64,000 nucleotides of DNA from an uncultured archaeon (GCA_964512105.1 CAZEGI010000001.1:40534-104533); one strand, 5' to 3'; numbered from the stretch's first letter, positions 12,002-57,583 are shown. Numbers and translations: made by a program. The notes: generated from the sequence alone by a model not told the origin.

Positions 12002-12002
12002 G

Positions 12003-12872: not shown

Positions 12873-12873
12873 A

Positions 12874-14016: not shown

Positions 14017-14078
14017 GATTTAAATACAGAGCAGGAATGTATTATATTCTCGCATCAATTTAGTTAATTCAACGTAAA

Positions 14079-15182
14079 ATGCCGGTGGAAAACAACGGAG
14101 AAAAAACCCCGTATGGTGTGAACAACCAACATCAGGACAGAAAGAAGGCCATCTGCGTTACGCTGACCCAACCAGACAATCCGGTGAGGGTCGAGTGCAA
14201 CACAACGGACGAGATTCTCAGTTTAATCCAGGATGCCAAGATTGCCTGGGTTGACTTCATGGTCTCGGACATTGAGGGTGAGGGTGAAGCGATTGCAACA
14301 CGATTGGGTTTTGGGCCAAACCTTGTTTCGGTCCTGATTAAGGGTTATTACTCGAGCTACGAGGATCGCGATACTGAACTTGGGCTGGTGGTGCCGAATG
14401 TCAGTGTTGAAAAACTCGAGGTTACGGTAACCCCGTTGCTGATACTGATGAGAAAGGGTTTGATTGTAACACTGCACAAGGGTACATCGCGACGTCTTTT
14501 AAAGTTTTCGCGTTATGCAAACACCTTCATGCGCAAGATGCCGCCTGAAACGACGTGGCAGGACGCACTGACCATTGTTCTGACGAGAATTCTGGACGAA
14601 AACAACAGCAGGAACTTCGACCACCTGAGGGAGATAGAGGAACAGGCGGATGAACTCAGCAGGGACCTCATGGACCCGAGAACGCCAAGAACCAAGATCG
14701 GGCCTGAGATATACAACATGAAGCATGCCCTCATAACCTACATGAACGCGCTCTGGGCGACGCTTGACGTGCTGGATTCATTACGATACGGCGATGCCGA
14801 ACTGCTAACGGACAACGCAAAGTTGTTGAGGAGGATAGGCATCCTTGCCGATGATGTCAACAGGCAGCTTTCCCTGAGCGAACACATGAGCGAAGTGCTT
14901 GCTTCAGGACTCGAGGTTTTGCAGACGATTTACAACAACCAGCTCCAGATGCTGAACAACCGTTTGTCTTTGGTGGTAACGTGGCTCACTATTGTTGGCA
15001 CAGCGATACTTATACCAAACACGCTCGCAACGATATATGGAATTCCTGCAATTTCTGAACATATCGATTGGCATTTCACAATCTGGACTATTCTGCTGAC
15101 ATCCATTCTTTCGGCTATTGTAACGTTCTATTACTTCAAATGGAGGGGTAAGATTCCAACATCATCGGAGCATTACGATTGA
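14079..15182 (+). CDS. CorA-family divalent cation channel homolog with an atypical pore motif (Y-G-I-P instead of Y-G-M-N)
   Basis: A ~300-aa soluble N-domain is followed by two C-terminal TM helices (LSLVVTWLTIVGTAILIPNTLATIYGIPAI ... FTIWTILLTSILSAIVTFYYFKW). This aligns with CorA (IFIPLTFIAGIYGMNF) except that GMN becomes GIP. Confidence 0.6.
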   Translation: MPVENNGEKTPYGVNNQHQDRKKAICVTLTQPDNPVRVECNTTDEILSLIQDAKIAWVDFMVSDIEGEGEAIATRLGFGPNLVSVLIKGYYSSYEDRDTELGLVVPNVSVEKLEVTVTPLLILMRKGLIVTLHKGTSRRLLKFSRYANTFMRKMPPETTWQDALTIVLTRILDENNSRNFDHLREIEEQADELSRDLMDPRTPRTKIGPEIYNMKHALITYMNALWATLDVLDSLRYGDAELLTDNAKLLRRIGILADDVNRQLSLSEHMSEVLASGLEVLQTIYNNQLQMLNNRLSLVVTWLTIVGTAILIPNTLATIYGIPAISEHIDWHFTIWTILLTSILSAIVTFYYFKWRGKIPTSSEHYD

Positions 15183-15920
15183 TTATAGATACTCCGCATG
15201 TTTCATTATAACGTTTCCTAAATTTTTAACCTCTCTTTCGCTTAGTCCTGTGCCTTCGGTGTTGTTCTTTATGAACTCCACCAGCTTGTTTGGAGAAACA
15301 ATGCTAACTGTCGGATTTTTTATTTTCAGCACTACTGCGGGGTTTGTGAACACCAGTATACCCTCGACCCATATATGGGGTGTTTTTTTGAATATCTCCC
15401 TTTGATGCCTTAGTATGAAGTCCTTCAGCACCTTTGCGTTTCGCTTAACCTGGTTGCTCGGATTGCCTATCTCGAGCGGGTATGGTTTGCCACGCCTGCC
15501 AATCTTTCTCCTGCCCCAGACATCGCCGTTGCAACTGACCTCCCCGGAATAGTTTTTTGTTTCAACCACAAATATCCCGTTTCTGCCCAGCACGATGTGG
15601 TCAACATCACCGCGGTTCGGCGGGATTACAACGCCGCTGATCAGACAGTAGGTGTCGTCAAGTTTTTTCAGTTCGTTTATAACGATTTTTTCCCCTTCCG
15701 AGCCGCTGCCCCAGATGAGATGCTTTCGGTAGGTGTATATTCCAAGACCATAGGCTATGGGAATCAGAATCAAACCGACTGAAGCGTAAGGTACAATGTC
15801 CATGATGAAAAGTAAAAAACCCAGCAAAATCAACGTCACAAAAATCAGCAGCCTGCTCCTGTTGAGCTGTATGTTCCGCCAGACATAAAGCGTTTCCGTA
15901 TGCTTTTTCAGTAGTATCAT
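15183..15920 (-). CDS. NERD (nuclease-related domain) protein with two N-terminal TM helices
   Basis: GDVDHIVLGRNGIFVVETKNYSGEV matches the NERD core. The N-terminus is hydrophobic (LLIFVTLILLGFLLFIM; LILIPIAYGLGIY). Confidence 0.7.
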   Translation of the reverse strand: MILLKKHTETLYVWRNIQLNRSRLLIFVTLILLGFLLFIMDIVPYASVGLILIPIAYGLGIYTYRKHLIWGSGSEGEKIVINELKKLDDTYCLISGVVIPPNRGDVDHIVLGRNGIFVVETKNYSGEVSCNGDVWGRRKIGRRGKPYPLEIGNPSNQVKRNAKVLKDFILRHQREIFKKTPHIWVEGILVFTNPAVVLKIKNPTVSIVSPNKLVEFIKNNTEGTGLSEREVKNLGNVIMKHAEYL

Positions 15921-15924
15921 TTGG

Positions 15925-15991
15925 AGTTACATTTATATAGGGGTCGAAAGTAATATTTTCCTACTATATATAAAAAGAGAGGTGAAAAAAC
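15925..15991 (+). promoter_or_regulatory. Candidate archaeal promoter (TATA-like TTTATATA / CTATATATAAAAA) and Shine-Dalgarno GAGGTGA upstream of pilin gene 1
   Basis: ...catTTATATAggggtcgaaagtaatattttcctaCTATATATAAAAAgaGAGGTGAaaaaacATG. Two TATA-like boxes are present, and GGAGGTGA-like RBS lies 7 nt before the ATG at 15992. Confidence 0.5.
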
Positions 15992-16483
15992 ATGATTGGA
16001 AGAAGAGGTCAGGGTGCCATGGAGTACCTCATGACCTATGGATGGGCAATCCTGGTGGTTATGATCGTCGGGATTGTCATGTGGCAGTTGGGTATTTTTT
16101 CTATGGGAACCACAACCGTCACAGCGACGGGCTTTAGCAAGATAAAGCCACAGCTCGCCGGAACGGGTGTTTCGGGCAGCACAGGTAAGTTTACGGGGGT
16201 ATTTATGAATGGCGCAGGTTCTGCAGTAAGCGTAAAGAGTGTTACCCTTGAAGGAAAGACTGGTAATTTGGACTGTTCCGCTGCGATTGTTGCATTACCA
16301 TCGGCTCCCGTAGCTGCGGGCGATAACTTCGAGCTGTCAACAACGGCACCGACACACTGTACCGAAACGGGTAATGCCGGCGATGTCTACCAGTTGTTAG
16401 TGACGATAAACTACAACATAAGCATAGGCGGACTGACTACAGACCACTCGGACAGCGGCATAATAAGGGGGCCACTTGAATAA
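15992..16483 (+). CDS. Archaeal type IV pilin (class III signal peptide, QxSxEY motif), paralog 1
   Basis: The N-terminus MIGRRGQGAMEYLMTYGWAILVVMIVGIVMWQLGIF fits the PF04021-like class III signal (Q-x-[SA]-x-E-x3-T, then a hydrophobic helix). The C-terminus GGLTTDHSDSGIIRGPLE is shared with the two downstream paralogs. Confidence 0.8.
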   Translation: MIGRRGQGAMEYLMTYGWAILVVMIVGIVMWQLGIFSMGTTTVTATGFSKIKPQLAGTGVSGSTGKFTGVFMNGAGSAVSVKSVTLEGKTGNLDCSAAIVALPSAPVAAGDNFELSTTAPTHCTETGNAGDVYQLLVTINYNISIGGLTTDHSDSGIIRGPLE

Positions 16484-16545
16484 ACCCTTACTTTTTCTTT
16501 TTTTATTTTTTATTTGTTTTTATTTCCCCTGTTTTATATTTTATT

Positions 16546-17046
16546 ATGAAGTCCAGAAAAGCCCAGTCCGCACTGGAGTATATAACAACGTATGGTTGGG
16601 CCGTGCTCGTTGTACTTATCCTTGGAATTGCGCTGTGGCAGCTCGGAATTTTTCAGACAAGCCCTGCCACGAGTTTTTCCGGTTTTGGCGCTTTAAAGCC
16701 GCAGCTTAGCGGGACGGAATTAAAGCTTTCGGGCAGCACTGCAAACTTTACAGGGATGTTCATAAACGGTTTTGGTGACCGTGTAATCGTTACGGACGTG
16801 AACATCACGGAAAAGTATGGCGGTTGTGCTGCCGACATTACGGTTAACGACAACTTCATAGGACCAAACGGTGTAGTTATCGGGAGGGGGAATTTTTTTG
16901 TTGTGAAGGGAACGGGTATAGATACGGCGGCTGCGTCTGTTGGTGATATCTACGAACTTACGGTGCGGTTTGACTACAACATTTTGGTGGGAGGCACAAA
17001 AACCAATCACTCAGTTTCGGGAGTTATACGTGGTCCTTATGTCTAA
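16546..17046 (+). CDS. Archaeal type IV pilin, paralog 2
   Basis: MKSRKAQSALEYITTYGWAVLVVLILGIALWQLGIF, with the conserved C-terminal ...TNHSVSGVIRGPYV. Confidence 0.8.
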   Translation: MKSRKAQSALEYITTYGWAVLVVLILGIALWQLGIFQTSPATSFSGFGALKPQLSGTELKLSGSTANFTGMFINGFGDRVIVTDVNITEKYGGCAADITVNDNFIGPNGVVIGRGNFFVVKGTGIDTAAASVGDIYELTVRFDYNILVGGTKTNHSVSGVIRGPYV

Positions 17047-17527
17047 GCCGAAAAAATCCCAGGCTGCTGTAGAGTACGTGATGACCTATGGTTGGGCCAT
17101 TCTCGTCATCCTGATAGTCGGGGTGATGATGTGGCAGCTCGGCATTTTCAAGATTGGAGGTCAGACCGCGCCGGGCAGTAGGGGATTTTCACAGATAAGG
17201 CCTCTTGATTGGTCGCTCAAAAAAATAAGCGCAACCGACGGAACCCTTGACATGATAGTGGTGAACGATGCGGGAGTCATACTGCAACTGCCAGCAAACA
17301 GCGTATTCGCGGCCGTTGACCTAGTGAACTGCAGCACGGGGCCAGCAACAGCATACACGAAATTCCGACCGGGTCAGACGATACCCGTAACACTAACGTG
17401 CCAGAATCTTCCTGCAGAATATCAAACAGGGGAGTATTACAGGGCAACCGTTGTAATCAATTACATAAACCCGGCATCGGGTCTTAACCACTCGAGCGTC
17501 GGGATAGTTTTTGGAGGCGTTGAGTAA
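17039..17527 (+). CDS. Archaeal type IV pilin, paralog 3
   Basis: MSKPKKSQAAVEYVMTYGWAILVILIVGVMMWQLGIF. The ATG at 17039 overlaps the stop of paralog 2 (ATGTCTAA). Confidence 0.75.
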   Translation: MSKPKKSQAAVEYVMTYGWAILVILIVGVMMWQLGIFKIGGQTAPGSRGFSQIRPLDWSLKKISATDGTLDMIVVNDAGVILQLPANSVFAAVDLVNCSTGPATAYTKFRPGQTIPVTLTCQNLPAEYQTGEYYRATVVINYINPASGLNHSSVGIVFGGVE

Positions 17528-17621
17528 TAGCAAAACACATTAATTTATGAACTTTTTACATGCGTTTTGATAGCTAGCAAATTGCAATTATAGTTCAAAT
17601 ATTTTTGCAATTTGCTATAAT
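17528..17621. repeat. 95-bp palindromic intergenic element, copy A, the inverted partner of 28127-28220. It has internal 12-bp inverted repeats AGCAAATTGCAA/TTGCAATTTGCT and TIR-like ends
   Basis: The reverse complement of 17528-17621 matches 28127-28220 with a 62-nt perfect core (AATTGCAATTTGCTAGCTATCAAAACGCATGTAAAAAGTTCATAAATTAATGTGTTTTGCTA) plus a 14-nt block. It fills the convergent hisS/pilin intergenic space. Confidence 0.85.
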
Positions 17622-18871
17622 CAGGAAAGTTTTTCAATTAGATTTGCAATCTTCACTTCTTCTTGTTTCTTTTTCCGCATATTTTTAACAACAACGGAGT
17701 TGTTTTTTAATTCTTTTTCGCCGACAATAACCACAAACTCTGCATTAATCCTGTCTGCATACTCGAGAATCTTATCCAGTTTTCTGTCAATCAGGTTCAA
17801 ATCAACCTTCACGTTACCGGGGTTTTTTCTTAGGTTTGCAGCAATACGCCATGCCTGTTCCGTTGTGTTGCCTATCTGCGCTATAACAACTGCCCTTTCC
17901 TTTTTTTCGAGTTTCTTTTTTTGAATTTCGCACGCCTCGACAACCCTGTCGAACCCGAATGCAAACCCAACTGCTGGCGTATCCGGGCCTCCAAAAAGTT
18001 TTACGAGATTGTCGTAACGGCCGCCTCCGCATATCTGGTTTTCCGCACCCAGACCATCAACACGCAACTCGAAAATCATTCCGGTGTAGTATTCCAAGCC
18101 GCGCGCCCTTCCGAGGTTTATGGTGTATTTTGTTTTCAGCATGTCCAGCCAGCCGGCAATCTCCATGAGGCGGTTGAGTTGCTCTGCGGATTTGTTGCTG
18201 TTTCTGAGCAGGGCTGCTGCCTCTCTGAGTTTTTCGCTGCCGCCCTTCATCCCGATGATTTTATAAAAAACCCCGCTGTCCACGAATTTTTTCAAAATTT
18301 CGGTATCGCCCTTGTCTATGCTTGCTATAACAGAGTCATGCTTTTCCTTCGGAACTCTAAAGTCATCAAGCATGCTTCTCAGCAGCCCGATACTTCCGAT
18401 TTCAAGTTCGAACTCCAAACCCAGCGCATTCAGGGAATCAACAGCGACCCGTATGACCTCGGCATCAGCCAAACTATTGTCTGCTCCGATAAGCTCTATT
18501 CCTAACTGCCAGAACTCGCGGTAGCGACCCTTCTGCGGTCTTTCGTATCGAAACATCGGGCAGGAATAGTAAACCTTCAATGGTTTTTGCATGCTTATGA
18601 GTTCGCTCGCGTACATCCTGCACACGGAAGCAGTCATCTCGGGTCTTAAGCAAAGTTCCCTGTCCGATTTGTCCCTGAAAACGTACATGTGCTCCTTGAT
18701 TTCCTCTCCGGATTTGAGTCTGAACAACTCTGCAGGTTCAAACGTCGGGGTCAGAATCTTTCGGTAGTTGTACGCTTTGAACACTCCAGCGATTGCGACC
18801 TCGACAAAATCCCTTTTGCCCATTTCCTCCGGGTTGAAATCCCTGGTTCCGCGGGGTTTCTCGACTTTCAT
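17621..18871 (-). CDS. hisS: Histidyl-tRNA synthetase
   Basis: MKVEKPRGTRDFNPEEMGKR...FRYERPQKGRYREFWQLGIELIG...GGGRYDNLVKLFGG gives class II aaRS motifs 1-3 and the HisRS-specific blocks. Confidence 0.9.
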   Translation of the reverse strand: MKVEKPRGTRDFNPEEMGKRDFVEVAIAGVFKAYNYRKILTPTFEPAELFRLKSGEEIKEHMYVFRDKSDRELCLRPEMTASVCRMYASELISMQKPLKVYYSCPMFRYERPQKGRYREFWQLGIELIGADNSLADAEVIRVAVDSLNALGLEFELEIGSIGLLRSMLDDFRVPKEKHDSVIASIDKGDTEILKKFVDSGVFYKIIGMKGGSEKLREAAALLRNSNKSAEQLNRLMEIAGWLDMLKTKYTINLGRARGLEYYTGMIFELRVDGLGAENQICGGGRYDNLVKLFGGPDTPAVGFAFGFDRVVEACEIQKKKLEKKERAVVIAQIGNTTEQAWRIAANLRKNPGNVKVDLNLIDRKLDKILEYADRINAEFVVIVGEKELKNNSVVVKNMRKKKQEEVKIANLIEKLS

Positions 18872-18912
18872 CCTTATTATTTTTATTTAGGGAACTAAAA
18901 ACAATTTTTTAT

Positions 18913-19458
18913 ATGGAAATCAAAGCCGGCAATTTCTACAAGGTTCTGGCGCCGCGGCCGACGGTTATAATTACAACGATTGACAAAAACGGTAATGTAA
19001 ACGCCGCACCGTTCAGTTTTGTGATGCCGGTTTCCATGAATCCTGCACTCGTCGCATTTGCATCGGGGCATGGCAAACACACGCTTGGGAATGTCCGTGA
19101 AACAAAAGAATTTGTGGTGAACATTCCTCCCGAAAAAATTCTGAAAAAACTGCTTATAACAGCGGAAAATTTTCCGAAGGGCGTGAATGAACTGGAAAAG
19201 GCAGGGCTGACAGAGAAAAAATCGAAACTTGTAAAACCGCCGTGCATTGAGGAATGCATCGCATGGTTCGAATGCGAACTCGAGTTCGAAAAAACCGCAG
19301 GCGACCACGTGATTGTTGTCGGAAGGGTTGTGAATGCGGAAATTGCTGACGGATTTATGAAAGAGAATGGAAATCTTGATGTGAAAAAAGCGAAGCCGTT
19401 GCTTCATCTCGGTGGTAATGAGTTTGCAGTTCCAGAGCGCATTATTGAATCCAAATAA
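18913..19458 (+). CDS. Flavin reductase-like FMN-binding split-barrel domain protein
   Basis: ...YKVLAPRPTVIITTIDKNGNVNAAPFSFVMPVSMNPALVAFAS... is the typical flavin reductase-like domain signature. Confidence 0.7.
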   Translation: MEIKAGNFYKVLAPRPTVIITTIDKNGNVNAAPFSFVMPVSMNPALVAFASGHGKHTLGNVRETKEFVVNIPPEKILKKLLITAENFPKGVNELEKAGLTEKKSKLVKPPCIEECIAWFECELEFEKTAGDHVIVVGRVVNAEIADGFMKENGNLDVKKAKPLLHLGGNEFAVPERIIESK

Positions 19459-21780
19459 TTACCACTCACCAATCCCCATCTGTTTCCCGAGACCCTTGAG
19501 CTGCTCTTCCGAATAACCCAGCGCCTCGAGAATTCTCATGACTGCGGGCAGAAGCTGGTTGTTTATGTAGTATTCCGCATCGTAATCTCCTTCCTTCACG
19601 AAGTCTATGACCACAGATTTGTCGCTGATGCTTTTTCCCCTTCTGGTGACTATGTAGGTTACGATGCTGCCCTCCTTGAAATCTGTTCCCTGCTTCATGG
19701 CTTTTTTTGCAGCGACGATGTGCGGCCCTTCCTGGACATATTCCCCCATCTTCCGCGTTATCTGCGTGTTTATCGCAAGGTCCGCGAGTTTCACCTTCCC
19801 GTCCTTTATGTTTTTTATCGCGTCGCGAACAATGTTGGCCGCCTTTTCGGGACTCCTGTCCTGCAGTATCGCGTTCAGAACCTTTTCCTGGGTTTCCTTC
19901 GCTATGTTGGCCCAGTCCCGCCTTCTCGTTTCCAAACCCTTTACCGTGAGTTTCTTGTGCTCGTCCATCAGGGCGTAGCGCTTTTTCGTGATGAAGATTC
20001 CGCGCGGGTACATGCCCTCGAACTCGAGCTCCATCGAGCCTGGAAGTTTTTTGTTTATGTAATCCTGGAGTGCCTTTGCGCTTTCCTTGATTTTACCCGC
20101 ATCCTTTTCGTTTAATTTTACGATGAAGATGCTGTCGGTATCACCGTAAATCACTTTAAACCCATGCGCTTCCGCGTCTTTTATCGTCTGGTGGATGTAC
20201 TCCCTGCCCCATGCCGTGATTGCTTCTGCGCAGTCCTTGGAATACCATCTCGCACGCGCAAACGCGTAATAACCGTACATGCTGTTCGCCAGAATCTTGA
20301 GGGCCTGTTGCTGGACATCGAGCATCTTTTTTTTCTCAGCGTCCTTCTCCTTGCTCTGCCGCGCTTTGGTTTCCATTCTTTTTGAGATAAGACCTTCAAG
20401 AATTTCAGGAATGAAGCCTTTCTTGTTCTTGCAGAAATAATGTCCTGTCGGGGCTTTGTAACCGTCGTTCTTGCAGCAATCGCAGTCCATGGTTGACGGG
20501 TCAACGTTGTGTGATATGATGATGCTTGGATAAAGTGAGCGGAAGTCGAACAAGAGAATGTTATCGTGAATTCCTTTAACCGGCTCAACGACGTATGCCC
20601 CAACATAGGATTCGCTCTGCCGTTCATTGGCTATGTTGTCTGACGGCCTGTTGGGGATGAGAATTCCTTTTTCGTGCGCCTTTATCATGAGTAACTGTTC
20701 GACGCGCTGGCCGGATGCAAGACGCGAGGTTTCGTATATCGGATGCCGCAGAATGCGCGACAGCTCGTACTCGAGAGGAAGAACCGCAAGCGCGATTTTT
20801 AATGCCGCCCTGACATCGCTTATCGAATACTCCATGAGTTTTTTGAAATCTTCCGCATTTTTCGATTCCCATGAGCGGAATATCTCGCTAACGGTTATTA
20901 AACTTTTTTTCTCCTCTCCGAATATTCCGAGATAAACGTCCTCAAGTCTGTACCTCGGAAAATTAAAGTTCTGCCTGCATATCGGGAAGGTGTCAATGTG
21001 CGGCCGGCCCCTGACCTTGGCCCCAAGATTCATGCCTCTGCGCTCCAATTTTATGTCACTGCCATCAATCCCCAGGTCAAGCTCTATTTTATACTTTGCG
21101 GCCCGGTCTTTGAGGTACGGGAAGTCGAAGTTGTCCGTGTTGTAGCCGGTGATGATGTCGACCCCGCGCTCCTTGACGGTTTCAACGAACTTTTTTATCA
21201 TCTCCTGCTCGTCATCAACGAATTCCACGTATTTCAGGTTGGAGCCGGAAATTTTTTTGTAGGTCCAGACGCGTTCAAACCCCTTTGAATCCGCATACCC
21301 GATTACTATCGCCGGGTCCCGCTCGGCGTTCGGGTCGCCCTTCGGCGCGTAAACCTCGATGTCAAACGCTCCGACGAGGAGGTCTGCGAATTCCGCATCC
21401 TCCATCGGAACAAGTTTCGAATCTATGAGATAGCGGTGAGCGAATGGTATTCCCGCCTCTCTGACTTCCTTGCAGGAATCCAGCGCCTTCACGTGCTCTC
21501 TTAGCTCCGGAACATCCCCTGGTTGTTTTACGATAATTTTTGTAACATCGATTTTTTTGGAGACGTTTATCATTGATTTTTTATCGACCCGAACAACCTT
21601 ATTCAGTCCTCTTAATTCCTTTATGAGTTTGTCTATATCGCTATCGGGAATCGCATAGAAATACGGCTCAAATCCGGAAACTTCCTCAACGTTTCTTTTA
21701 TCCTTTTCCTTGTAGAACAGCCTTATCACGGGCTTTTCGTCCCTTATCGTATAATCAATATCCAGAAGCGTTTTCGACAT
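19459..21780 (-). CDS. polB: Family B DNA polymerase
   Basis: Exo motifs are FDIEVYAP and YNTDNFDFPYL. Polymerase motifs are KILANSMYGYYAF and KVIYGDTDSIFI. The likely start is MSKTLLDIDYTIRDEKPVIRLFYK (21780); the longer ORF to 21942 adds an implausible hydrophobic leader. Confidence 0.9.
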   Translation of the reverse strand: MSKTLLDIDYTIRDEKPVIRLFYKEKDKRNVEEVSGFEPYFYAIPDSDIDKLIKELRGLNKVVRVDKKSMINVSKKIDVTKIIVKQPGDVPELREHVKALDSCKEVREAGIPFAHRYLIDSKLVPMEDAEFADLLVGAFDIEVYAPKGDPNAERDPAIVIGYADSKGFERVWTYKKISGSNLKYVEFVDDEQEMIKKFVETVKERGVDIITGYNTDNFDFPYLKDRAAKYKIELDLGIDGSDIKLERRGMNLGAKVRGRPHIDTFPICRQNFNFPRYRLEDVYLGIFGEEKKSLITVSEIFRSWESKNAEDFKKLMEYSISDVRAALKIALAVLPLEYELSRILRHPIYETSRLASGQRVEQLLMIKAHEKGILIPNRPSDNIANERQSESYVGAYVVEPVKGIHDNILLFDFRSLYPSIIISHNVDPSTMDCDCCKNDGYKAPTGHYFCKNKKGFIPEILEGLISKRMETKARQSKEKDAEKKKMLDVQQQALKILANSMYGYYAFARARWYSKDCAEAITAWGREYIHQTIKDAEAHGFKVIYGDTDSIFIVKLNEKDAGKIKESAKALQDYINKKLPGSMELEFEGMYPRGIFITKKRYALMDEHKKLTVKGLETRRRDWANIAKETQEKVLNAILQDRSPEKAANIVRDAIKNIKDGKVKLADLAINTQITRKMGEYVQEGPHIVAAKKAMKQGTDFKEGSIVTYIVTRRGKSISDKSVVIDFVKEGDYDAEYYINNQLLPAVMRILEALGYSEEQLKGLGKQMGIGEW

Positions 21781-21823
21781 TTTAATTTTATAATATAATA
21801 ATCCCAGAGTATAACATATAAGC

Positions 21824-22471
21824 ATGAAAACCGTTCTTTGGATTAAACTGAAAAACGTTGTGGGTGCATTGAGGGAATTGAGCACCGTTATTGCAGAGAG
21901 GAAAGGCAATATCACATATATAGAACAGATAGGCAGCGGCAACGTAGTTTATCTTTCTCTTGAAATCGAAGGTATAAAAAATAGAAAACCACTGATAGAT
22001 GGTCTAAAAAAGTTAAAACCCGTTCTATCTGTTGAAACGGTTCCGAGTTTTTCCGAGATTTACGGGAAACGGGTTATTGTCATAGGCGGTGGGGCGCAGG
22101 TCGCCGAAGTGGCGAAGGGCGCGATATCGGAGGCCGACAGGCACAACATTCGGGGGGAAAAGATAAGTGTCGATACGATCCCCCTGGTTGGTGAGAGGGA
22201 AATCGCAATGGCTGTCAGGGCAGTTCCAAGACTGCCGAGGGCCAGCATTCTTGTCCTTGCGGGCTCGCTGATGGGTGGCGAGATAACGAAGGCCGTGAAG
22301 GAAGTCAGAAAGGGGAGGATTCCGGTCATATCTTTGAACATGGCCGGCTCGGTTCCGGAAGCTGCAGACATGGTTATCTCGGACCCAATACAGGCAGGAG
22401 TCATGGCCGTGATGAGCATAGCAAAAACCGCATGCTTCGACCTCAAAAAACAGAAGGGCAGAAAATATTAG
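21824..22471 (+). CDS. ACT-domain protein with an uncharacterised C-terminal domain
   Basis: The N-terminus [32 protein letters not shown] has an ACT-like beta-alpha-beta-beta-alpha-beta pattern. The C-terminus [20 protein letters not shown]... has no family I can name. Confidence 0.4.
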
Positions 22472-22476
22472 CTGAT

Positions 22477-23004
22477 TCAATGCACTTCAATCTTCGTCAC
22501 GCCACCCGCCTTGTACACCGCCTTTATGGTTGCGTCCCTGACGGCACTCGCATATTTTTTGTCATCGGATTTTTTGTTTATCCTGAGGATGTATAACGCA
22601 TCCGTGATGCCCGCGTGCTCCAACACAGAAACCAGGAGTTTCTCTAGATTATCTGTGGTTTCTTTCTTAAGGCCAATGTCTGATTGAACCGCCAACGATT
22701 TTATGCCTTCACCCAAAGCGGACGGCATGAGTGAAACCTTTACTGTTTTTTCTTCATCAGATGCAAATCCGGAACACGAAACCGTAAGCCCGTATTTTTC
22801 CCACTGCAGGACGTTTAGATTGTCCATTCCCATGCTTCTCAGAGAATCCGTAATCTTCTCGATATTCTCACTCTTTAGGTTCAGTGTTATTTCCCTGCCG
22901 ATGAGAGACATGCTCAGAACTTCATATTTGGAGAGATTCTCGAAAAGTTTCCCTATGTTGTGCCCGGTGTAGGAACCGCTTATCGCGATACGGTAGTTGG
23001 TCAT
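22477..23004 (-). CDS. Hypothetical protein
   Basis: 175-aa ORF with coding-like composition, packed between neighbours (4-nt overlap with agmatinase). I recognise no motif. Confidence 0.4.
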   Translation of the reverse strand: MTNYRIAISGSYTGHNIGKLFENLSKYEVLSMSLIGREITLNLKSENIEKITDSLRSMGMDNLNVLQWEKYGLTVSCSGFASDEEKTVKVSLMPSALGEGIKSLAVQSDIGLKKETTDNLEKLLVSVLEHAGITDALYILRINKKSDDKKYASAVRDATIKAVYKAGGVTKIEVH

Positions 23005-23843
23005 TTTAGCAACATGAAATCCAGCAGCAGTTTTGCCGCCGTCACGGTCGTTGCGCCGTTGTCGAAGAGTGGGTTTACCTCCATTATATCAAAACCGACG
23101 ATATTGTTTTGTTTTTTTGAGACATTAATAATTTCAATGAGGGTATTTAAGCTTATGCCGTTCGGTTCGGGATTTGAAACCCCCGGTGCAACGGAAGGGT
23201 CTAGAACGTCCATGTCCAGGGTTATGTAAAGATTCTTTCCTTTCGTTTTTTTCAGTAGTTTTTTGATTTTTGTAACATCAACACCGCAATAATCCATTCC
23301 TTTTTCTTTTGCAAATTTTGATTCTTCATTGCTCATGCTTCTAACGCCCATGGATGTTATTTTAACGCCGAGTTCAGAAACACGGCGCATAACCGTCGAG
23401 TGATTCCATTTTTCCCCGAGGTAGTCGTCCCTCAAATCAAGGTGCGCATCTAGATGCAACATGCTGATTTTTTTTCTTTCATTTAAAATTTTTAGTATCG
23501 GGTAGGTTAGGGTATGCTCGCCACCAAGCACAATTGGTACAAAATTTTCATTTTTTTTAAATGTATTTTGCATCGTATGCACAACCCGTTCAAAGGTTTT
23601 TTGCAGATTTCCATGGACAACCTCTATATTTCCAAGATCGCAGAACTTGACATCGAAAAAACTCTTCTTTCCCGATTCCTTCTCCAGCTCCAAAAACTCT
23701 TTTCGTATCTCCAGTGGCGCAAATCTCGAACCCGTGCGATACGTGGATGTGGAATCGAACGGTATTCCGAGAAGTACGAATTTCGCGTCCTCAACCTCGC
23801 AATTCGACTCGAGTATGAGGTTTTTATTTGTGTACAAATCCAT
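23001..23843 (-). CDS. speB: Agmatinase / arginase-family ureohydrolase
   Basis: LLGIPFDSTSTYRTGSRFAPLEIR, GGEHTLTYP, LHLDAHLDLRDDY and TLDMDVLDPSVAPGVSNPEPNG are the Mn-binding arginase-fold motifs. Confidence 0.85.
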   Translation of the reverse strand: MDLYTNKNLILESNCEVEDAKFVLLGIPFDSTSTYRTGSRFAPLEIRKEFLELEKESGKKSFFDVKFCDLGNIEVVHGNLQKTFERVVHTMQNTFKKNENFVPIVLGGEHTLTYPILKILNERKKISMLHLDAHLDLRDDYLGEKWNHSTVMRRVSELGVKITSMGVRSMSNEESKFAKEKGMDYCGVDVTKIKKLLKKTKGKNLYITLDMDVLDPSVAPGVSNPEPNGISLNTLIEIINVSKKQNNIVGFDIMEVNPLFDNGATTVTAAKLLLDFMLLK

Positions 23844-23854
23844 TCTACTTTAGA

Positions 23855-24430
23855 ATGATATACTTTGAGGATATAAAACTTAAAACGCATCCGGAGGTTT
23901 ACGTTCCATGCGATGATTCTTTTTTGCTTGCTGAAAATCTGCGGGTGCAGGAAGAGGACGAGGTTCTGGATGTGGGCACAGGAACCGGAATTCTTGCCAT
24001 CGTTGCTGCCAAAAAAGCGGAATTTATTTTGGCAACGGACATTAATCCGCAGGCGTTGGAATTGGCAAATGAGAATGCACGTTTGAATGGTATGAAGAAC
24101 GTAAAATTTCTGGAAAGCGACCTGTTTGAAAAGATAAATGGAAAGTTCGACCTTGTTATTTTTAATGCTCCGTATCTGCCGTCTTTCGAAAACGACCCGC
24201 TCGGAAGGGCGTGGTCCGGCGGTAAGGACGGAACAGCGGTCATTAAGAAGTTCCTGGAAAACGTATCGGAACATTTGAAAGCCAACGGTAGGATACAGAT
24301 GCTTGTTTCTTCAATTACAAATTTTGAAAAAATAGAAAGCGCCGCAAAGAAAAATAATCTGAAAGTAAAAATCCTAGCGCAAAAAAGGAATTTTTTTGAA
24401 ACATTTTACGTTTTGCTTTTTGAGAGGTAG
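23855..24430 (+). CDS. HemK/PrmC-like SAM-dependent methyltransferase (N5-glutamine / small-MTase family)
   Basis: VLDVGTGTGILAI is the SAM motif I, and VIFNAPYLP is the NPPY-type motif IV. The ORF in the track starts at 23828; the start at 23855 (MIYFEDIKL...) is more likely. Confidence 0.7.
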   Translation: MIYFEDIKLKTHPEVYVPCDDSFLLAENLRVQEEDEVLDVGTGTGILAIVAAKKAEFILATDINPQALELANENARLNGMKNVKFLESDLFEKINGKFDLVIFNAPYLPSFENDPLGRAWSGGKDGTAVIKKFLENVSEHLKANGRIQMLVSSITNFEKIESAAKKNNLKVKILAQKRNFFETFYVLLFER

Positions 24431-24457
24431 TTTTAACCTTATTCCTAATTAATAAAG

Positions 24458-25594
24458 ATGAATTTCAAAAAAATTGAGGATCTGGAAAAGAAATACTACG
24501 CTGGTGTTTTTTCACGGTTACCGGTTGCGGTAGACCATGGAAAAGGCGTTTATCTGTATGATGTTAAAGGTAAGAGGTACCTTGATTTTTTTGCAGGCAT
24601 AGCAGTAAATGTTCTCGGGCATTGCCATCCAAAGGTTACCAAGACAATTGCAAAACAGGCAGGCATGCTGGTACATACGTCAAACTGGCTTTACACAAAA
24701 CCGCAGCTGGAGCTGGCCAAGCTGCTCACAAAAATAACTAAGCAGGATAGGGTTTTTTTCACGAATGACGGTACCGAGGCGGTTGAGGCGGCAATAAAAC
24801 TTGTAAGGTCCACGACAGGAAAAAAAGAGATAATAGCGATGAAAAATGCGTTCCATGGAAGAACCCTCGGCTCATTAAGTCTGACGTGGGACGAAAAATT
24901 CCGCAAACCATTCGAGCCCCTTGTACCTGGAGTGAAGTTTGTCGAATATAACAACGTAAAAAAACTTGAAAGTGCAATAACCGGGAATACCGCGGCCGTG
25001 ATACTTGAACCAATTCAGGGCGAAGCGGGCGTGATAATTCCTGATGTCGGCTATTTGAAAAAAGTGAGGGAGATGACGGAAAGAGAGGGGGTGTTGCTGG
25101 TACTCGACGAGGTCCAGACCGGGTTGGGAAGGACCGGAAAGTTGTTCGCTTACGAACACGAGGATGTTAAACCGGACATTTTGTGCCTGGGAAAGGCGCT
25201 TGGTAACGGGTTCCCGATAGGGGCTGCGCTTTACAATGGAATGGATTTCAAGACCGTGGAGCATGGTGGAACGTTCGTCGGCAATCCGCTGGCGTGCGCT
25301 GTTTCGAAGACCGTTGTTGAGACGGTGATAAATGAGAATCTTCCAAAAAAATCTGCAAAGCTTGGTTTATATCTGCTAAAAGAATTGAAAGAAGGATTGG
25401 GATTACGGGCCCGTGGAAGGGGATTGATGATGGGAATTGAAGTTAAGGACGGTAAGAAGACCGTTTTGGACTTGATAGAACGGAGCGTTCTGACGATACA
25501 CACGAAAAACACGGTCAGGATTTTGCCGCCTCTGATAATCGAGAAAAAACACGCGGATTTGTTTCTTGAGAGGATTGGTAGTTTAAGGGTTTAA
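24458..25594 (+). CDS. argD: Class III PLP aminotransferase (acetylornithine/LysJ-type)
   Basis: GHCHPKV, LVLDEVQTGLGRTGKLFAYEH and the PLP-lysine region LCLGKALGNGFPIGA match it. Confidence 0.85.
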   Translation: MNFKKIEDLEKKYYAGVFSRLPVAVDHGKGVYLYDVKGKRYLDFFAGIAVNVLGHCHPKVTKTIAKQAGMLVHTSNWLYTKPQLELAKLLTKITKQDRVFFTNDGTEAVEAAIKLVRSTTGKKEIIAMKNAFHGRTLGSLSLTWDEKFRKPFEPLVPGVKFVEYNNVKKLESAITGNTAAVILEPIQGEAGVIIPDVGYLKKVREMTEREGVLLVLDEVQTGLGRTGKLFAYEHEDVKPDILCLGKALGNGFPIGAALYNGMDFKTVEHGGTFVGNPLACAVSKTVVETVINENLPKKSAKLGLYLLKELKEGLGLRARGRGLMMGIEVKDGKKTVLDLIERSVLTIHTKNTVRILPPLIIEKKHADLFLERIGSLRV

Positions 25595-25595
25595 C

Positions 25596-26243
25596 ATGCT
25601 TGTCGTTTTGAAAATCGGCGGTAGTCTTTGCAGAGACCCGAAGATCCTTAAAAAACTTCTAAAAAAAATTTCGGCACTTTCGTGTAAATTTGATTTTCTG
25701 GTGGTTCCGGGCGGCGGAGGTTTCGCTGACCTTGTCAGGTCGTATGACAAAAAATTCGAACTAAAACCGGAGATTTCGCATGAGATGGCAATCCTGGCAA
25801 TGGACATCAACGGCCAACTGATTTGTAATTTTAACGGATTTTATCCTGCTTACGATTTGAATTTTAAAAGAAATAAAAAAATTCCGGTGTTGATTCCGTC
25901 GCGGTTTTTATCCAACAAAAAAATCAGGAAAACGTGGGATGTGACTTCGGATTCGATAGCGGCTTACGTTGCCGGATTGATAAATGCCGATATGTTGATT
26001 TTACTCAAGGATGTTGACGGTGTGTTTAGTGGGGACCCCAAGAAGAATAGGGATGTTATCATGTTTGAAAGAATAAACGCAAAGAATCTGAAAAAAATCA
26101 AAAGTTCGTGTCTGGACAAGGAATTCCCGGATTTTATAAAGAAGTTTAAGTTGAAGTCTTATGTTATTAATGGGAAAACCCCGGAAAGGTTAGAAGACCT
26201 GCTGAACGGAAAAAGGTTTGTAGGAACAACGATCGAAGAATGA
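25596..26243 (+). CDS. Amino-acid-kinase-fold protein (short UMP-kinase/isopentenyl-phosphate-kinase-like paralog)
   Basis: MLVVLKIGGSL...VVPGGGGFAD...LILLKDVDGV... and the C-terminal NGKRFVGTTIEE parallel the archaeal PyrH at 36850 (..NGKKFVGTVIE). The specific substrate is unclear. Confidence 0.5.
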   Translation: MLVVLKIGGSLCRDPKILKKLLKKISALSCKFDFLVVPGGGGFADLVRSYDKKFELKPEISHEMAILAMDINGQLICNFNGFYPAYDLNFKRNKKIPVLIPSRFLSNKKIRKTWDVTSDSIAAYVAGLINADMLILLKDVDGVFSGDPKKNRDVIMFERINAKNLKKIKSSCLDKEFPDFIKKFKLKSYVINGKTPERLEDLLNGKRFVGTTIEE

Positions 26244-27103
26244 ATCTTAACGAAAAGGCTTGGCGTTTAATGGATGACGTTATGAGGGGTGGAGAGATTA
26301 AAGCTGATAGATTTAAAACGATGCAAGGTGACGTCATCATTCTTAATTTAAATTTGGTTAAAGATGAGGGTGTAGCCAAAAAAGTTGCGGAGGCGTGCAT
26401 GGGCGGCTTGGGGAAGGTGGATATAGAGAATGATAATTTGGTGGTTGGGTGTAAAGGCAGGGTGGCGCTCGCGACCATGGGCTGTCAGCTTTCGGGCTGG
26501 TCCATAAACGGCGCGCTTGGTTCCGGCCCCGCACGCATTCTCGCAAGAAAGCCGAAGGAGATTTTTAATTTTTTGGGGTACAGTGAAAACGCAAAAAAAG
26601 CAGTGCTTTTTTTGGAAACCGACGGTGGGGTTGGTGAGGATTTATACCGAACTATTCTGGAAAAAACACAAACAGAAAAACTCATGGTCGCTGTGTTTAG
26701 TGGACGTTCGATGGTCGGAAAGATAAATGTTTTGGCACGAGTTCTTGAGATGGCGGTGTTCCGGCTTTATCACCTGGGATACGACATAAGGAATGTGGTT
26801 TACGGAAAAGGTTCTGTGCCGGTACCGAAAAGTAACGACCCAGGTTTATGCAACGACGCGATAATATATTTCGGCTCCGTCCATTTGAAGGTTAAGGGCT
26901 GGGACAAAAATCTTACGGAAAAATGCGTCTCAGGTTCATCGAAGATTCACGGAAAAAGATTCAACGAAATTTTAAAGGACGCAGGGGGCGATTTTTATAA
27001 GATAGACCCCGGGATATTTGCGCCCGCGGAACTGACGGTGAATGATGCAAGAACAGGTAAGAGGTACCATGCGGGTAAAAGGCACAAATATACTAAAAGT
27101 TAA
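26240..27103 (+). CDS. mch: Methenyltetrahydromethanopterin cyclohydrolase
   Basis: VAEACMGGLGKVDIE, GWSINGALGSGPARILARKPKE and FYKIDPGIFAPAELTVNDARTGKRYHAG closely parallel the conserved Mch blocks I recall from methanogen Mch. Confidence 0.75.
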   Translation: MNLNEKAWRLMDDVMRGGEIKADRFKTMQGDVIILNLNLVKDEGVAKKVAEACMGGLGKVDIENDNLVVGCKGRVALATMGCQLSGWSINGALGSGPARILARKPKEIFNFLGYSENAKKAVLFLETDGGVGEDLYRTILEKTQTEKLMVAVFSGRSMVGKINVLARVLEMAVFRLYHLGYDIRNVVYGKGSVPVPKSNDPGLCNDAIIYFGSVHLKVKGWDKNLTEKCVSGSSKIHGKRFNEILKDAGGDFYKIDPGIFAPAELTVNDARTGKRYHAGKRHKYTKS

Positions 27104-27112
27104 TACTTTACG

Positions 27113-27295
27113 ATGGATAAGGAAGTGGTCTTGAGGATTTATGAGTTATTACCAAAGAAGGATTGTGGTAAATGCAGGGAAAAGAAATGCGCCGAGTTTG
27201 CCAGAAGACTGCTAACTGGAGAGAGAAAACTCTACGAATGCCCTGAACTGGATGAAAAATCCGTGGAGGGGATAACGCTCATTCTTGAGGAGTAG
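27113..27295 (+). CDS. Stand-alone putative Fe-S cluster domain protein (PF04060-like, RnfC/CdhE N-terminal type), 60 aa
   Basis: LPKKDCGKCREKKCAEFARRLLTGERKLYECPEL gives the four-Cys pattern LP..DCG.C....C..FA..L..G......C. Confidence 0.5.
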   Translation: MDKEVVLRIYELLPKKDCGKCREKKCAEFARRLLTGERKLYECPELDEKSVEGITLILEE

Positions 27296-28106
27296 CAGCA
27301 TTTATAAAATCGCCCGTGGGGATTGTTAGCTTATTAAGTCGTTCCCTCAAATCAGGGGCAAGGATGTCACGGACTATTATTGAACCTGCGTAGATGTGAT
27401 CATCGTCACCGATGATAAGAACCTTTTTGTCATCAATGATTATGGCATTTTCACTTCCGTATTTCAGATAAAATCCGGGAATGTCGCAGCTGAATGTTTT
27501 ATTGGTGCTTACCATGGTAAGGCCGCTTTCGTTTAGTATTGTGAGTATGGAGCAATTTTCGCCATTCATGATGTAACTGTGTATCGGTGCGTTCGTCTGG
27601 GCATTTATCGCACCAAGCGCATAGTAAATGGCGAGCATGCCCTCTAAACCCCTGCCCGTCAATTCCTCGTCCATGACAAGATTTATCGGGTTAAGGTTTA
27701 GTGCTATATCCCTCGCGCGCTCCATTTTCACTGAGCAGTTTAAATCCGTCATAATACAGGAAAAAACATGGCACGTTTTTAAAAGTTCCGCGTCTGTTGA
27801 GCCCTTTATGGACGCCTCGTTCTTGGTTATGTATATTCCGGTATCGCCTGACTCGATTCGTATTTTTTTACCTTCCTCGCTTATTCTGGCAAGGGACGCC
27901 AACTCCAAGCCGCAGTAAAGTTCCGCCTTTCCTGCTGGCTGGAAGAGGTATATGTCCCACCACTTCTGCAGCTCCGTTAGAGGAACATCGGAACAAACCT
28001 TTGTGTCAAGCGTTAGTGAACAGTTCGAATTTGGTTGGTAGGTAAGGTAAGCAAATCCAAAGACGATTGCAATAACAGCCACAACAACAAAAATCCGTTT
28101 GTCCAT
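27279..28106 (-). CDS. Hypothetical membrane-anchored or secreted Cys-rich protein
   Basis: Probable start MDKRIFVVVAVIAIVFGFAYL (N-terminal TM/signal anchor), with several Cys. No family recognised. Confidence 0.4.
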   Translation of the reverse strand: MDKRIFVVVAVIAIVFGFAYLTYQPNSNCSLTLDTKVCSDVPLTELQKWWDIYLFQPAGKAELYCGLELASLARISEEGKKIRIESGDTGIYITKNEASIKGSTDAELLKTCHVFSCIMTDLNCSVKMERARDIALNLNPINLVMDEELTGRGLEGMLAIYYALGAINAQTNAPIHSYIMNGENCSILTILNESGLTMVSTNKTFSCDIPGFYLKYGSENAIIIDDKKVLIIGDDDHIYAGSIIVRDILAPDLRERLNKLTIPTGDFINAATPQE

Positions 28107-28126
28107 CTTAATTATCTTCCCTAAGA

Positions 28127-28220
28127 TAATAGCAAATTGCAAATATTGAAATTTAATTGCAATTTGCTAGCTATCAAAACGCATGTAAAAAGTTCATAAA
28201 TTAATGTGTTTTGCTATAAT
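28127..28220. repeat. 95-bp palindromic intergenic element, copy B, the inverted partner of 17528-17621
   Basis: See copy A. It sits in the divergent promoter space between 28106(-) and 28226(+) and ends ...TTTTGCTATAATataacATG. Confidence 0.85.
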
Positions 28221-28804: not shown

Positions 28805-30217
28805 ATGAACGTAAAGCAGACACGTCCCGGGGTCTGGGAATTTAAGGATGAAGGAATGAACGTTCCCGTGAGGATTTATGCGACCGAAAAACTCTTTGGA
28901 ACGATAGAGGAGGGTGTCTTTAGACAGGCTTCGAACGTTGCAAAACTTCCAGGGATATTGAATGCGAGCATGGTCATGCCAGACGGCCATTACGGTTACG
29001 GTTTTCCTATCGGCGGGGTTGCTGCGTTCGATTTGGAAAAGGGAATCATAAGCCCAGGCGGTGTGGGTTATGACATAAATTGCGGCGTGCGTCTTTTGGT
29101 TTCAAACCTTACTGAAGCGGAGGTAAGACCGAAACTCAGGGAATTGGTGGATGGATTGTTCCACAACATACCTTCGGGTTTAGGCAGCAAATCTAAACTT
29201 CGAGCGTCGGGCGCACAGCTCGAGAGGGCATGCACACTCGGCTCACGGTGGGCTGTTGAAGAAGGTTATGGGGTTGAGGATGACTTAGAACATACAGAGG
29301 AGAATGGTGCAATTCCGGGTGCAGACCCGTCAAAAATCAGCGGCAGGGCAAAAGAACGCGGCCAGCCACAGCTTGGAACGCTTGGTTCTGGAAACCATTT
29401 TCTGGAGGTTCAAAGAGTTGACAGGATTATTGACCCTGAAATCGCAGGGAAATTTGGTATAACGGATGTCGGCCAGATTGCGGTTATGGTGCACTGCGGT
29501 AGCCGGGGCCTGGGTTACCAGATTGCTGACGAAGCTATCCAGACGATGCTCAACGCTTCGCGAAAGTACGGTATAAAACTTCCGGACAATGAACTTGCAT
29601 GTGCCCCGCTGAAGTCGAAGGAAGCGGATGACTACGTTAAAGCGATGTACTGTGCCGTGAATTATGCATTCGCGAACAGACAGGTGATAACGCACTGGGT
29701 AAGAGAAACATTCGAACGTGTTTTTGGTGAAAAAATAGGGTTAAAACTTCTTTATGATGTTTGTCATAATATAGCGAAATTTGAAGAACACGAAGGTTTT
29801 GGAAGGGTGTGTGTCCATAGAAAGGGGGCGACAAGAGCATTTGCTGCAGGCAGGAAGGAGATTCCAGCAGAACTCAGGAACATTGGGCAACCAGTAATCG
29901 TGCCGGGCGACATGGGAACAGCTTCCTACGTGCTTGTCGGAACAGAAACCGCGATGAAGGAATCGTGGGGGAGCGTGTGCCACGGTGCAGGCCGGCTTCT
30001 CTCAAGGACCGCGGCAATAAAGAAAGTCCGCGGCGAGCAGGTTAAGCAGGAACTCGAAAAAAAAGGCCAGGTGGTGCGCTCCGATTCATGGAAAACCCTA
30101 GCTGAGGAAGCACCAATGGCGTACAAGAACGTGGATGATGTCATAAGAAGCGTAGAGTTGGCAGGTTTGTCAAAGCCTGTAGCGAGGATGACACCGTTAG
30201 GGGTTGCGAAGGGTTGA
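28805..30217 (+). CDS. rtcB: RNA-splicing ligase RtcB
   Basis: MPDGHYGYGFPIGGV, GYDINCG, GSGNHFLEVQ, HCGSRGLGYQ and SVCHGAGR are the RtcB metal/GMP-binding motifs. Confidence 0.9.
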   Translation: MNVKQTRPGVWEFKDEGMNVPVRIYATEKLFGTIEEGVFRQASNVAKLPGILNASMVMPDGHYGYGFPIGGVAAFDLEKGIISPGGVGYDINCGVRLLVSNLTEAEVRPKLRELVDGLFHNIPSGLGSKSKLRASGAQLERACTLGSRWAVEEGYGVEDDLEHTEENGAIPGADPSKISGRAKERGQPQLGTLGSGNHFLEVQRVDRIIDPEIAGKFGITDVGQIAVMVHCGSRGLGYQIADEAIQTMLNASRKYGIKLPDNELACAPLKSKEADDYVKAMYCAVNYAFANRQVITHWVRETFERVFGEKIGLKLLYDVCHNIAKFEEHEGFGRVCVHRKGATRAFAAGRKEIPAELRNIGQPVIVPGDMGTASYVLVGTETAMKESWGSVCHGAGRLLSRTAAIKKVRGEQVKQELEKKGQVVRSDSWKTLAEEAPMAYKNVDDVIRSVELAGLSKPVARMTPLGVAKG

Positions 30218-57437: not shown

Positions 57438-57583
57438 TTCAAGTCACAAAAATAATTCACATGACTTACATCTAAATATACTCGTTGCAATTTAAAAATA
57501 AACCGTGTTTTTGCAATGAAAGTAAGTCATAATACTAAGTCAAAGTAAGTCACAAAGATACGTCATGACTTACTTTTATTTTT
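57438..57583. promoter_or_regulatory. Repeat-dense intergenic region: AAGTCA-N15-TGACTT; AGTAAGTCA (x2), TAAGTCA, and the perfect 9-bp inverted repeat AGTAAGTCA-N13-TGACTTACT; the stretch between is AT-rich with TTGCAA boxes
   Basis: Read directly: 57521-57529, 57536-57542, 57544-57552 and 57566-57574. The same 9-mer TGACTTACT also sits at 56091-56099 on the far side of the ATPase gene. Confidence 0.7.

Follow-up and report, generated by a model that had tools for sequence, protein, structure and literature searches.

Two inverted palindromic repeats in the genome of an uncultured archaeon as probable insertions of a miniature transposable element

A 64,000-nucleotide stretch of DNA from an uncultured archaeon (GCA_964512105.1, CAZEGI010000001.1:40534-104533; hereafter the window) contains two short palindromic elements, copy A at 17528-17617 on the plus strand and copy B at 28130-28216 on the minus strand, which lie in inverted orientation on either side of a 10.5-kb block of genes. 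This arrangement raises the question of whether the pair is a mobile element, a regulatory or structural site of the host, or a substrate for inversion of the segment between the copies, all of which had been put forward in an initial annotation of the window. Our analyses indicate that each copy is probably an independent insertion of a non-autonomous DNA transposon of approximately 90 bp, that is, a miniature inverted-repeat transposable element (MITE), which belongs to an archaeal family. The palindromic pair bracketing the 10.5 kb would accordingly represent two transposon insertions rather than a genome switch, and its inverted arrangement around the block would be incidental.

Structure of the element and its flanking triplets

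The inverted pair of palindromic elements described in the initial annotation proved to be real. A repeat search of the window identified arms of 72 nt (17527-17598 and 28146-28217) that are 97% complementary, and the two intervals assigned to the copies in that annotation aligned globally with 87 matches in 98 columns. A perfect core is present as claimed, but the longest exact run common to both copies is 64 nt (17527-17590 and 28154-28217) and not 62 nt. The 12-bp inverted repeat reported for each copy, AGCAAATTGCAA...TTGCAATTTGCT, was found in both, and almost all the differences between the copies are in a single hairpin loop. A 47-nt piece of the core had two matches in the window, with none expected from 100 shuffles, and neither a pattern search nor an nhmmer profile identified a third copy in the window.

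The element consists of little beyond two ends joined by a linker, and the window copies, at 87-90 nt, are too short for protein coding. In copy A, the first end module, hp1 (17528-17572, plus strand), is formed by TAGCAAAACACAT, a 19-nt loop and ATGCGTTTTGATA, and its stem has two mismatches; the perfect form of this stem was seen at three other loci (L046, L022, and L026). A 2-nt linker, GC (17573-17574), separates hp1 from the second module, hp2 (17575-17617), in which TAGCAAATTGCAA, a 17-nt loop and TTGCAATTTGCTA form a perfect 13-bp stem. Copy B has the same parts on the minus strand. Its hp2 (28130-28169) has the stem of copy A around a 14-nt loop, which differs from that of copy A by three substitutions and a 3-nt deletion, and its 2-nt linker (28170-28171) is followed by an hp1 (28172-28216) identical to that of copy A, whose loop reads ATAAATTAAT on the plus strand. 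Folding, which the initial annotation had suggested as a check, produced two hairpins from either strand, with RNA-fold z-scores of -2.8 to -4.7, and copy A folded as DNA had z-scores of -3.5 and -4.4.

Further evidence comes from the nucleotides that flank the elements. Both window copies have TAA on the plus strand at either side, at 17525-17527 and 17618-17620 for copy A, and at 28127-28129 (hp2 side) and 28217-28219 (hp1 side) for copy B. The same pattern was found throughout the family, as the 3 nt before TAGC were identical to the 3 nt after GCTA in 25 independent insertions. In 24 of these matched cases the triplets were TAA/TAA or TTA/TTA, in the other (L025) they were TTG/TTG, and at three further insertions the flanks differed by one base. 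Both TAA and TTA were seen in either orientation relative to the direction from hp1 to hp2. Complementary flanks (TTA...TAA), which would be expected if the triplet belonged to the inverted repeat, were found in no case. Flanks that are identical and never complementary indicate a 3-bp target-site duplication at a TWA target, and thus the duplications that the initial annotation had proposed looking for are present at both window copies.

The two ends of the element are themselves related. Tips of TAGCAAA(A/T) are found at both ends, where they are perfect for 7-8 nt, and the whole 45-nt ends are 60-70% identical when one is inverted (z 2.4-6.5). In a comparison of nine members, hp1 matched the reverse complement of hp2 better than it matched hp2 read directly, in six by identity and in all nine by alignment score. 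The same two mismatches are found in the inner arm of hp1 in copies A and B, L048, and L050. As this subfamily has spread despite its inner-arm mismatches, the outer tips, and not the hairpin as such, seem to matter.

Further copies and the distribution of the family

A search for additional copies, which had been called for in the initial annotation, identified them in other contexts. Metagenomes were scanned with the left arm of the window's hp1 as the query, and the contigs carrying further copies had tetranucleotide correlations to the window (r of 0.89-0.96) like those of the window's own fragments, whereas the values for foreign loci were 0.1-0.7. The copy in one contig (L048) is 100% identical to copy A and has different flanks and context. 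Others include a 147-nt four-hairpin variant (L046/L047), in which hp1 is perfect and is separated from hp2 by two additional hairpins, and a 52-nt single-hairpin derivative (L053/L057) in which the outer arm of hp1 is fused to the outer arm of hp2. There are therefore at least five insertion sites in the window's organism (A, B, L048, L046, and L053). Similarly, three identical copies with different flanks (L020, L037, and L038) were found in the CAYYLB01 metagenome-assembled genome (MAG). Identical copies with different flanks, such as these and the pair of copy A and L048, indicate recent activity, and the MITE-like option of the initial annotation gains its support from the further copies in other contexts together with the duplications.

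A scan of 596 Gb of genomes, one genome per species, with the pattern AGCAAATTGCAA-N8-30-TTGCAATTTGCT identified 33 loci, approximately 24 of them archaeal and approximately 10 bacterial. The archaeal matches were in six Woesearchaeota MAGs, one Micrarchaeota MAG with four copies, and three MAGs labelled as Methanosarcinales, and several MAGs had two to four copies each. Assemblies with members of the family include CAYYLB01, CAZBPE01, JACRKK01, DUGG01, and CAILAH01. Nearly all the archaeal copies have an hp1 palindrome (TAGC...GCTA), a variable linker of 2-3 nt, and an hp2 of the form TAGCAAATTGCAA-loop-TTGCAATTTGCTA. The end modules, 45 nt for hp1 and 43 nt for hp2, are each a palindrome of the type TAGC...GCTA, and variants of the family range from 45 to approximately 180 nt. 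The stem of hp1 varies between subfamilies (GCGAATCTCG, GCAAAACACAT, GGCAAATCTCG, and GTAAAGCGCG) and does so by covariation: six of its 12 pairs change on both sides and none on one side, 94% of the cells are paired, and the pairing is far above that of column-shuffle and slid-partner controls. Since hp1 lay outside the search pattern, its covariation is not an ascertainment effect.

The genes beside the copies are unrelated to one another, and the copies, which occur in both orientations, lie between convergent, divergent, or co-directional genes. The target was the TAA stop codon of a long open reading frame (ORF) in five of 22 insertions; in two more the element's own TAG supplies the stop, and a further two abut a stop codon. 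It is telling that the insertions avoid coding sequence in these ways. Repeated landing on TAA stops, in genomes with almost no intergenic DNA, is one feature that makes the family of interest; in addition, it can serve as a marker for finding its transposase and explains contig breaks in assemblies of these lineages.

The window's organism appears distant from any well-sampled group. The best named relatives of its Mch protein are from Candidatus Altiarchaeota (45-49% identity) and no relative of its TYW3 protein exceeds 56% identity, values which indicate a deep, sparsely sampled lineage. By eye, the window copies are approximately 85% identical to those of the Micrarchaeota MAG, while the proteins of these organisms are 34-37% identical. 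More broadly, the family is common to organisms whose proteins are only 30-50% identical and whose elements are up to approximately 85% identical (again as read by eye). This distribution suggests that the element may have spread horizontally among co-occurring DPANN-type archaea. There is no evidence for a virus vector, as three scans of viral contigs (one with hp2 and two with hp1 types) gave no matches. No blastn match in plasmids was obtained for the window type or the GCGAATCTCG type, and a search of the literature for the arm sequences of the element returned only chance matches to primers.

Several longer variants have extra short GC-rich hairpins, which are located between hp1 and hp2 in L046 (6196-6348) and L013 (7784-7973) and inside the hp2 loop in L050 (1541-1684). 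One of these extra hairpins is again TAGC-headed (TAGCGGATGTCAT...). They may reflect nested insertion or modular growth. Two copies from the Micrarchaeota MAG, L022 (4136-4232) and L026 (453-549), have hp2 loops that are roughly reverse complements of one another (AATAATTGAACTT... and ...AAGTTCAATTATT), a flip of the loop between perfect hairpin arms that is a miniature version of the inversion proposed for the 10.5-kb segment. A loop-loop ("kissing") contact between hp1 and hp2 was considered and rejected because only 70% of cells pair, with some double changes, and the flipped hp2 loop of L022 breaks the pairing. We read the pairing that exists as probable residual homology of the inverted ends, rather than a selected tertiary contact.

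The bacterial matches from the genome scan (Aquimarina, Clostridia, and others) were also rejected, as they are longer, different hairpins that lack the TAGC/TWA ends and probably share the 12-mer by chance, given the very large number of hairpins in 596 Gb. Hairpins with AGCAAATTGCAA arms were found in Aquimarina/Flavobacteriaceae (L024, L030, and L031) and in Clostridia (L021, L028, and L040). The three flavobacterial hairpins are near-identical to each other and may represent a separate bacterial repeat family.

The two probable insertion sites and neighboring genes

The gene context was as the initial annotation described it, with convergent genes at copy A and divergent genes at copy B. 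Copy A occupies all 93 nt between a pilin-like gene (17039-17527, plus strand) and hisS. Its left duplication (TAA, 17525-17527) doubles as the pilin-like gene's stop codon, and a 201-codon ORF terminates precisely there. Its right duplication abuts the hisS stop codon, which is on the minus strand at 17621-17623. The site reads ...GAG TAA (element) TAA TCA GG..., where TCA is the hisS stop as seen from the other strand, and its sequence suggests that before the insertion the stops of the two genes would have been directly adjacent. Most other convergent genes in the window overlap or have 0-5 nt between them, which indicates that the 93-nt gap at site A was made by the element.

Copy B is located between a gene for a 275-residue membrane protein (ATG at 28106, minus strand) and TYW3 (ATG at 28226, plus strand), at a site that reads CAT-20 nt-TAA (element) TAA-TATAAC-ATG. 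Excluding the duplication, 20 nt lie between the hp2 of this copy and the ATG of the 275-residue protein gene, and the duplication on its hp1 side is 6 nt before the TYW3 ATG. The divergent spacer, now 119 nt, is reconstructed as 29 nt before the insertion. For the two sites, the predicted empty sequences with a single triplet are GAGTAATCAGG and CCCTAAGATAATATAACATG. All contigs from the same population carry the element at these sites. In the relative L061, in contrast, the divergent pair is retained with a 33-nt spacer that has no element (orthologues of the 275-residue protein and TYW3 with 32% identity, E 3e-50, and 50% identity, respectively), and given the evolutionary distance this spacer may count as an empty site only loosely.

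At site B the element has taken over most of the space available for the promoters of two genes that look essential. The 10-mer ATAAATTAAT occurs upstream of two genes in the window, at 21-30 nt from the TYW3 ATG and at 16-25 nt from the gene at 606. The AT-rich loops of copy B would now be at the expected TATA-box positions of both TYW3 and the 275-residue protein gene. Based on these positions, donation of promoters to the neighbors of copy B is plausible, and copy B is a simple case in which to test whether archaeal MITEs donate promoters. Most members of the family are not as near to gene starts as copy B.

The genome of the window's organism is very compact. Most convergent and co-directional neighbors overlap or are no more than 10 nt apart, and several divergent pairs in the window are separated by 11 nt or less; with such spacing many promoters must lie inside neighboring genes. 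The pilin-like gene beside copy A is at the end of a cluster (10256-17527) that encodes T2SSE, two T2SSF proteins, then CorA, NERD, and three tandem paralogues. These paralogues are approximately 162 residues each, have a conserved hydrophobic N-terminal segment, and had no Pfam or NCBIfam match; by its gene content the region resembles a type-IV-pilin-like cluster of archaea. In L050, a metagenome contig from a related organism, these pilin-like paralogues also occur, and after them comes an oppositely oriented variant of the element. The L050 copy was rejected as an orthologue of copy A because both its orientation and its position differ.

Three other features of the region were noted. The RtcB protein encoded in the window (28805-30217, 470 residues) has no intein, whereas those of the nearest relatives (L059:8095-11055 and L061:7038-8843, 986 and 601 residues) have inteins with Intein_splicing/LAGLIDADG or PT-HINT matches. 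A 146-nt divergent spacer at 57438-57583, beside a gene for an AAA_22 ATPase (56286-57437, minus strand), contains at least five copies of GTAAGTCA(Y)/TGACTTAC in both orientations, which could be an operator array or a cluster resembling origin recognition boxes. NCBIfam gave no confirmation of this ATPase as Orc1/Cdc6. Lastly, contigs L066 and L067, which come from independent assemblies and are 49 kb and 117 kb long, stop at points no more than 14 nt apart, approximately 1.1 kb beyond the TctA gene at the right-hand side of the window. There is no copy of the element at that point, and the ends could reflect another repeat or a strain-variable region.

Proposed mechanism, alternatives and comparison with known systems

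The element is small and non-coding, has terminal inverted repeats and a target-site duplication, and is present at multiple unrelated loci, as is typical of a MITE. We propose that a transposase supplied in trans would recognize the TAGCRAAT tips and make a 3-nt staggered cut at a T-A/T-A target, into which the element would insert, and that repair would then duplicate the target triplet. Copy A would have landed on the TAA stop of the pilin-like gene, where the hisS stop was directly adjacent, and copy B would have split a 29-nt divergent intergenic region. From the sequences of the ends and flanks, we infer that the enzyme is a DDE transposase of the IS5/PIF-Harbinger kind. Duplication of a TWA target is a hallmark of these transposases, and was found in all but the TTG case among the matched insertions. 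This kind of enzyme is favored by that duplication, by the duplication of TTG as well, by the occurrence of both TAA and TTA for each orientation, and by the ends being inverted copies of one another.

Several observations weigh against this interpretation. Pfam searches of essentially all the window genes identified no transposase or recombinase, and neither an autonomous parent nor a transposase was found in approximately 400 kb of related loci. There, a search for TWATAGC...GCTATWA ends with similar tips 260-5000 nt apart returned nothing, and an all-against-all BLASTP of 483 ORFs showed no recurring transposase-like protein. Three loci (L051, L054, and L055) considered as the parent were rejected: in each of them a TAA stop precedes no more than the initial 20-odd nt of hp1, beyond which the sequence is unrelated, and they are remnants or chance matches. 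The 10 kb beyond the left side of the window contained no transposase or parent and no further copy. No empty site from a near-identical strain was found, the nearest relatives being 50-56% identical in TYW3. The constancy of hp2 among the genome matches was imposed by the search pattern, and the taxonomy of the MAGs consists of submitters' labels for bins that can be contaminated. Finally, three features are unusual for DDE MITEs, namely the palindromic ends, the solo form L029, which is 45 nt long and has a duplication of its own, and the TAGC-headed hairpin arrays of L046 and L013. These features resemble those of hairpin elements that move as single strands.

That resemblance is the basis of the main rival explanation, in which the TAGC-headed hairpins would be modules like those of repetitive extragenic palindromic (REP) sequences and bacterial interspersed mosaic elements (BIMEs), or of palindrome-associated transposable elements (PATEs) of the IS200/IS605 family, moved single-stranded by an HUH Y1 (RAYT/TnpA-like) enzyme. 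The units are indeed stable hairpins, only 43-45 nt long, that carry an invariant 4-nt head and, in the case of hp1, covarying stem pairing, and they occur singly (L029), as inverted pairs, and in arrays of four (L046 and L013), as REP sequences do in BIMEs. Moreover, among insertion sequence (IS) families IS200/IS605 is reported to be the most abundant in archaea, with more than 65% of Micrarchaeota genomes containing it (PMC13343696). Under this explanation the TAA flanks would not be a true duplication, but a cleavage or target triplet at one side and an identical element-end triplet at the other. It is here that the explanation fits poorly, because the flanks match even for the atypical TTG of L025, as a staggered cut and repair predicts, and because the presence of TAA and TTA at a fixed hp1-to-hp2 orientation would need HUH action on either strand. 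The two ends also tend to be related as inverted rather than direct copies, and the subfamily of the window's organism spread with two mismatches in its hp1 stem. In IS608 there is spacing between the guide and the cleavage site. The foot of the present hairpins abuts the triplet, which leaves no space for such a distance. No Y1 gene was seen in the searched window and loci, and at the loci examined no small gene recurred beside the copies. We therefore consider this explanation unlikely. The related proposal that the modules are an archaeal counterpart of REP/BIME sequences, moved by an HUH enzyme and horizontally spread across phyla, is similarly doubtful. If it were true, the modules would double as portable stop, terminator, and TATA-box cassettes in compact genomes, and TYW3 and the 275-residue protein gene would be driven from element-borne promoters.

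It is very unlikely that the element is a vertically conserved intergenic feature of the host that is not mobile, such as a terminator or promoter cassette, a small RNA gene, or the operator of a dimeric regulator. Such a role would account for the filling of entire intergenic regions, for the stable fold on both strands, and for the T-runs and the AT-rich TATA-like loops, including the 10-mer shared by the upstream regions of TYW3 and the gene at 606. However, the copies are not tied to particular genes or gene-pair settings, their 3-nt duplications and the identical copies at different loci point to insertion events, and the orthologous spacer of L061 has no element. At gathering thresholds Rfam had no match anywhere in the window, and with permissive settings near copy A the sole match, of 18 bits (E 0.59), was at the level of chance. 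The regulatory or structural site suggested in the initial annotation is thus unlikely to be the primary nature of an element found at unrelated loci and in unrelated archaea, although a secondary effect on the promoters beside copy B is possible.

Hardly any probability attaches to the remaining option of the initial annotation, that the pair is the crossover for inverting the 17.6-28.1-kb segment by a programmed switch or by frequent homologous recombination. Although two inverted stretches that match perfectly over 64 nt, at a distance of 10.5 kb, could in principle serve for recombination, a single inversion would leave TAA...TTA at each copy, whereas both copies have TAA...TAA on the plus strand; the matching triplets indicate that there has been no net inversion since insertion. 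Copy A is identical to L048 over its full length, which means that no exchange of hp2 halves with copy B has taken place. The initial annotation had proposed that both orientations of the segment be looked for, but only one was found in all nine informative metagenome contigs, which came from several samples: in L008-L012 hisS adjoins the pilin-like gene, and in L001, L002, L004, and L005 the 275-residue protein gene adjoins TYW3. No recombinase or invertase domain was found in the genes flanking either copy. Some assemblies do break within the element (the sequences of L003 and L006 begin 38 nt ahead of TYW3), but contig breaks are expected for any repeat present at least three times. Rare recombinants are possible.

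Having weighed these alternatives, we return to the interpretation of the element as a MITE, which is best placed beside the systems it most resembles. What may be new is its characterization, namely the two-palindrome architecture, the TWA duplication, the stop-codon targets, and the sharing across organisms. Its architecture, in which one palindromic end is joined straight to another, ranks with the smallest of MITEs. Like the archaeal MITEs described in a 2024 census made with MITE-Tracker (PMC11602168), and like SM1-SM4 of Sulfolobus, it occurs in archaea, and in the same kinds of host. Of the archaea in the census, Ca. Altiarchaeum hamiconexum and a Woesearchaeal genome were reported to have the greatest MITE densities (PMC11602168), and in a 2026 survey no archaeal phylum exceeded the Altiarchaeota in median IS content (PMC13343696); MITEs are therefore to be expected in these lineages. 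The census stressed, however, the genus specificity of MITEs (PMC11602168), whereas the present family crosses organisms whose proteins are 30-50% identical, and its approximately 85% identity across labelled phyla contrasts with that specificity, in a comparison of one case each.

The Tourist-like, or PIF-Harbinger, MITEs and those of the IS5 family (IS427/IS1031-type) are likewise short, non-coding, and dispersed, with terminal inverted repeats, a 3-bp TWA (TAA/TTA) duplication, and dependence on a transposase supplied in trans. The present element differs from them in being only approximately 90 bp, almost all of it ends, with each end palindromic, and in having DPANN-type and other uncultured archaea as its hosts with no cognate IS identified. 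The Correia elements (CREE/NEMIS) of Neisseria are also intergenic MITEs (approximately 100-150 bp) with a short duplication and a location near the ends or starts of genes. They can supply promoters, and inverted copies of them can flank genes, while the promoter role of the present element is as yet predicted from its sequence. Correia elements are bacterial and, unlike the present element, have a TA duplication, simple 26-bp inverted repeats, and an IHF site.

The hairpin elements share a different set of features with the present family. The REP, BIME, and REPIN sequences associated with RAYT proteins also consist of palindromic units with a 4-nt head (GTAG there, TAGC here) and covarying stems, and occur as inverted pairs, in alternating arrays, and at the 3' ends of genes. 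To our knowledge, REP elements have no target-site duplication and have been described in bacteria only. The present element, by contrast, has a consistent 3-nt duplication, and no RAYT-like gene was seen at the loci examined. The PATEs of the IS200/IS605 family are non-autonomous, have hairpin ends, and have been reported in archaea, as for the element described here. Their end hairpins, however, have the same orientation, and they insert 3' of a fixed 4-5-nt target without duplicating it, whereas the ends of the present element are inverted copies of one another and its flanking TAA or TTA triplets are duplicated in both orientations.

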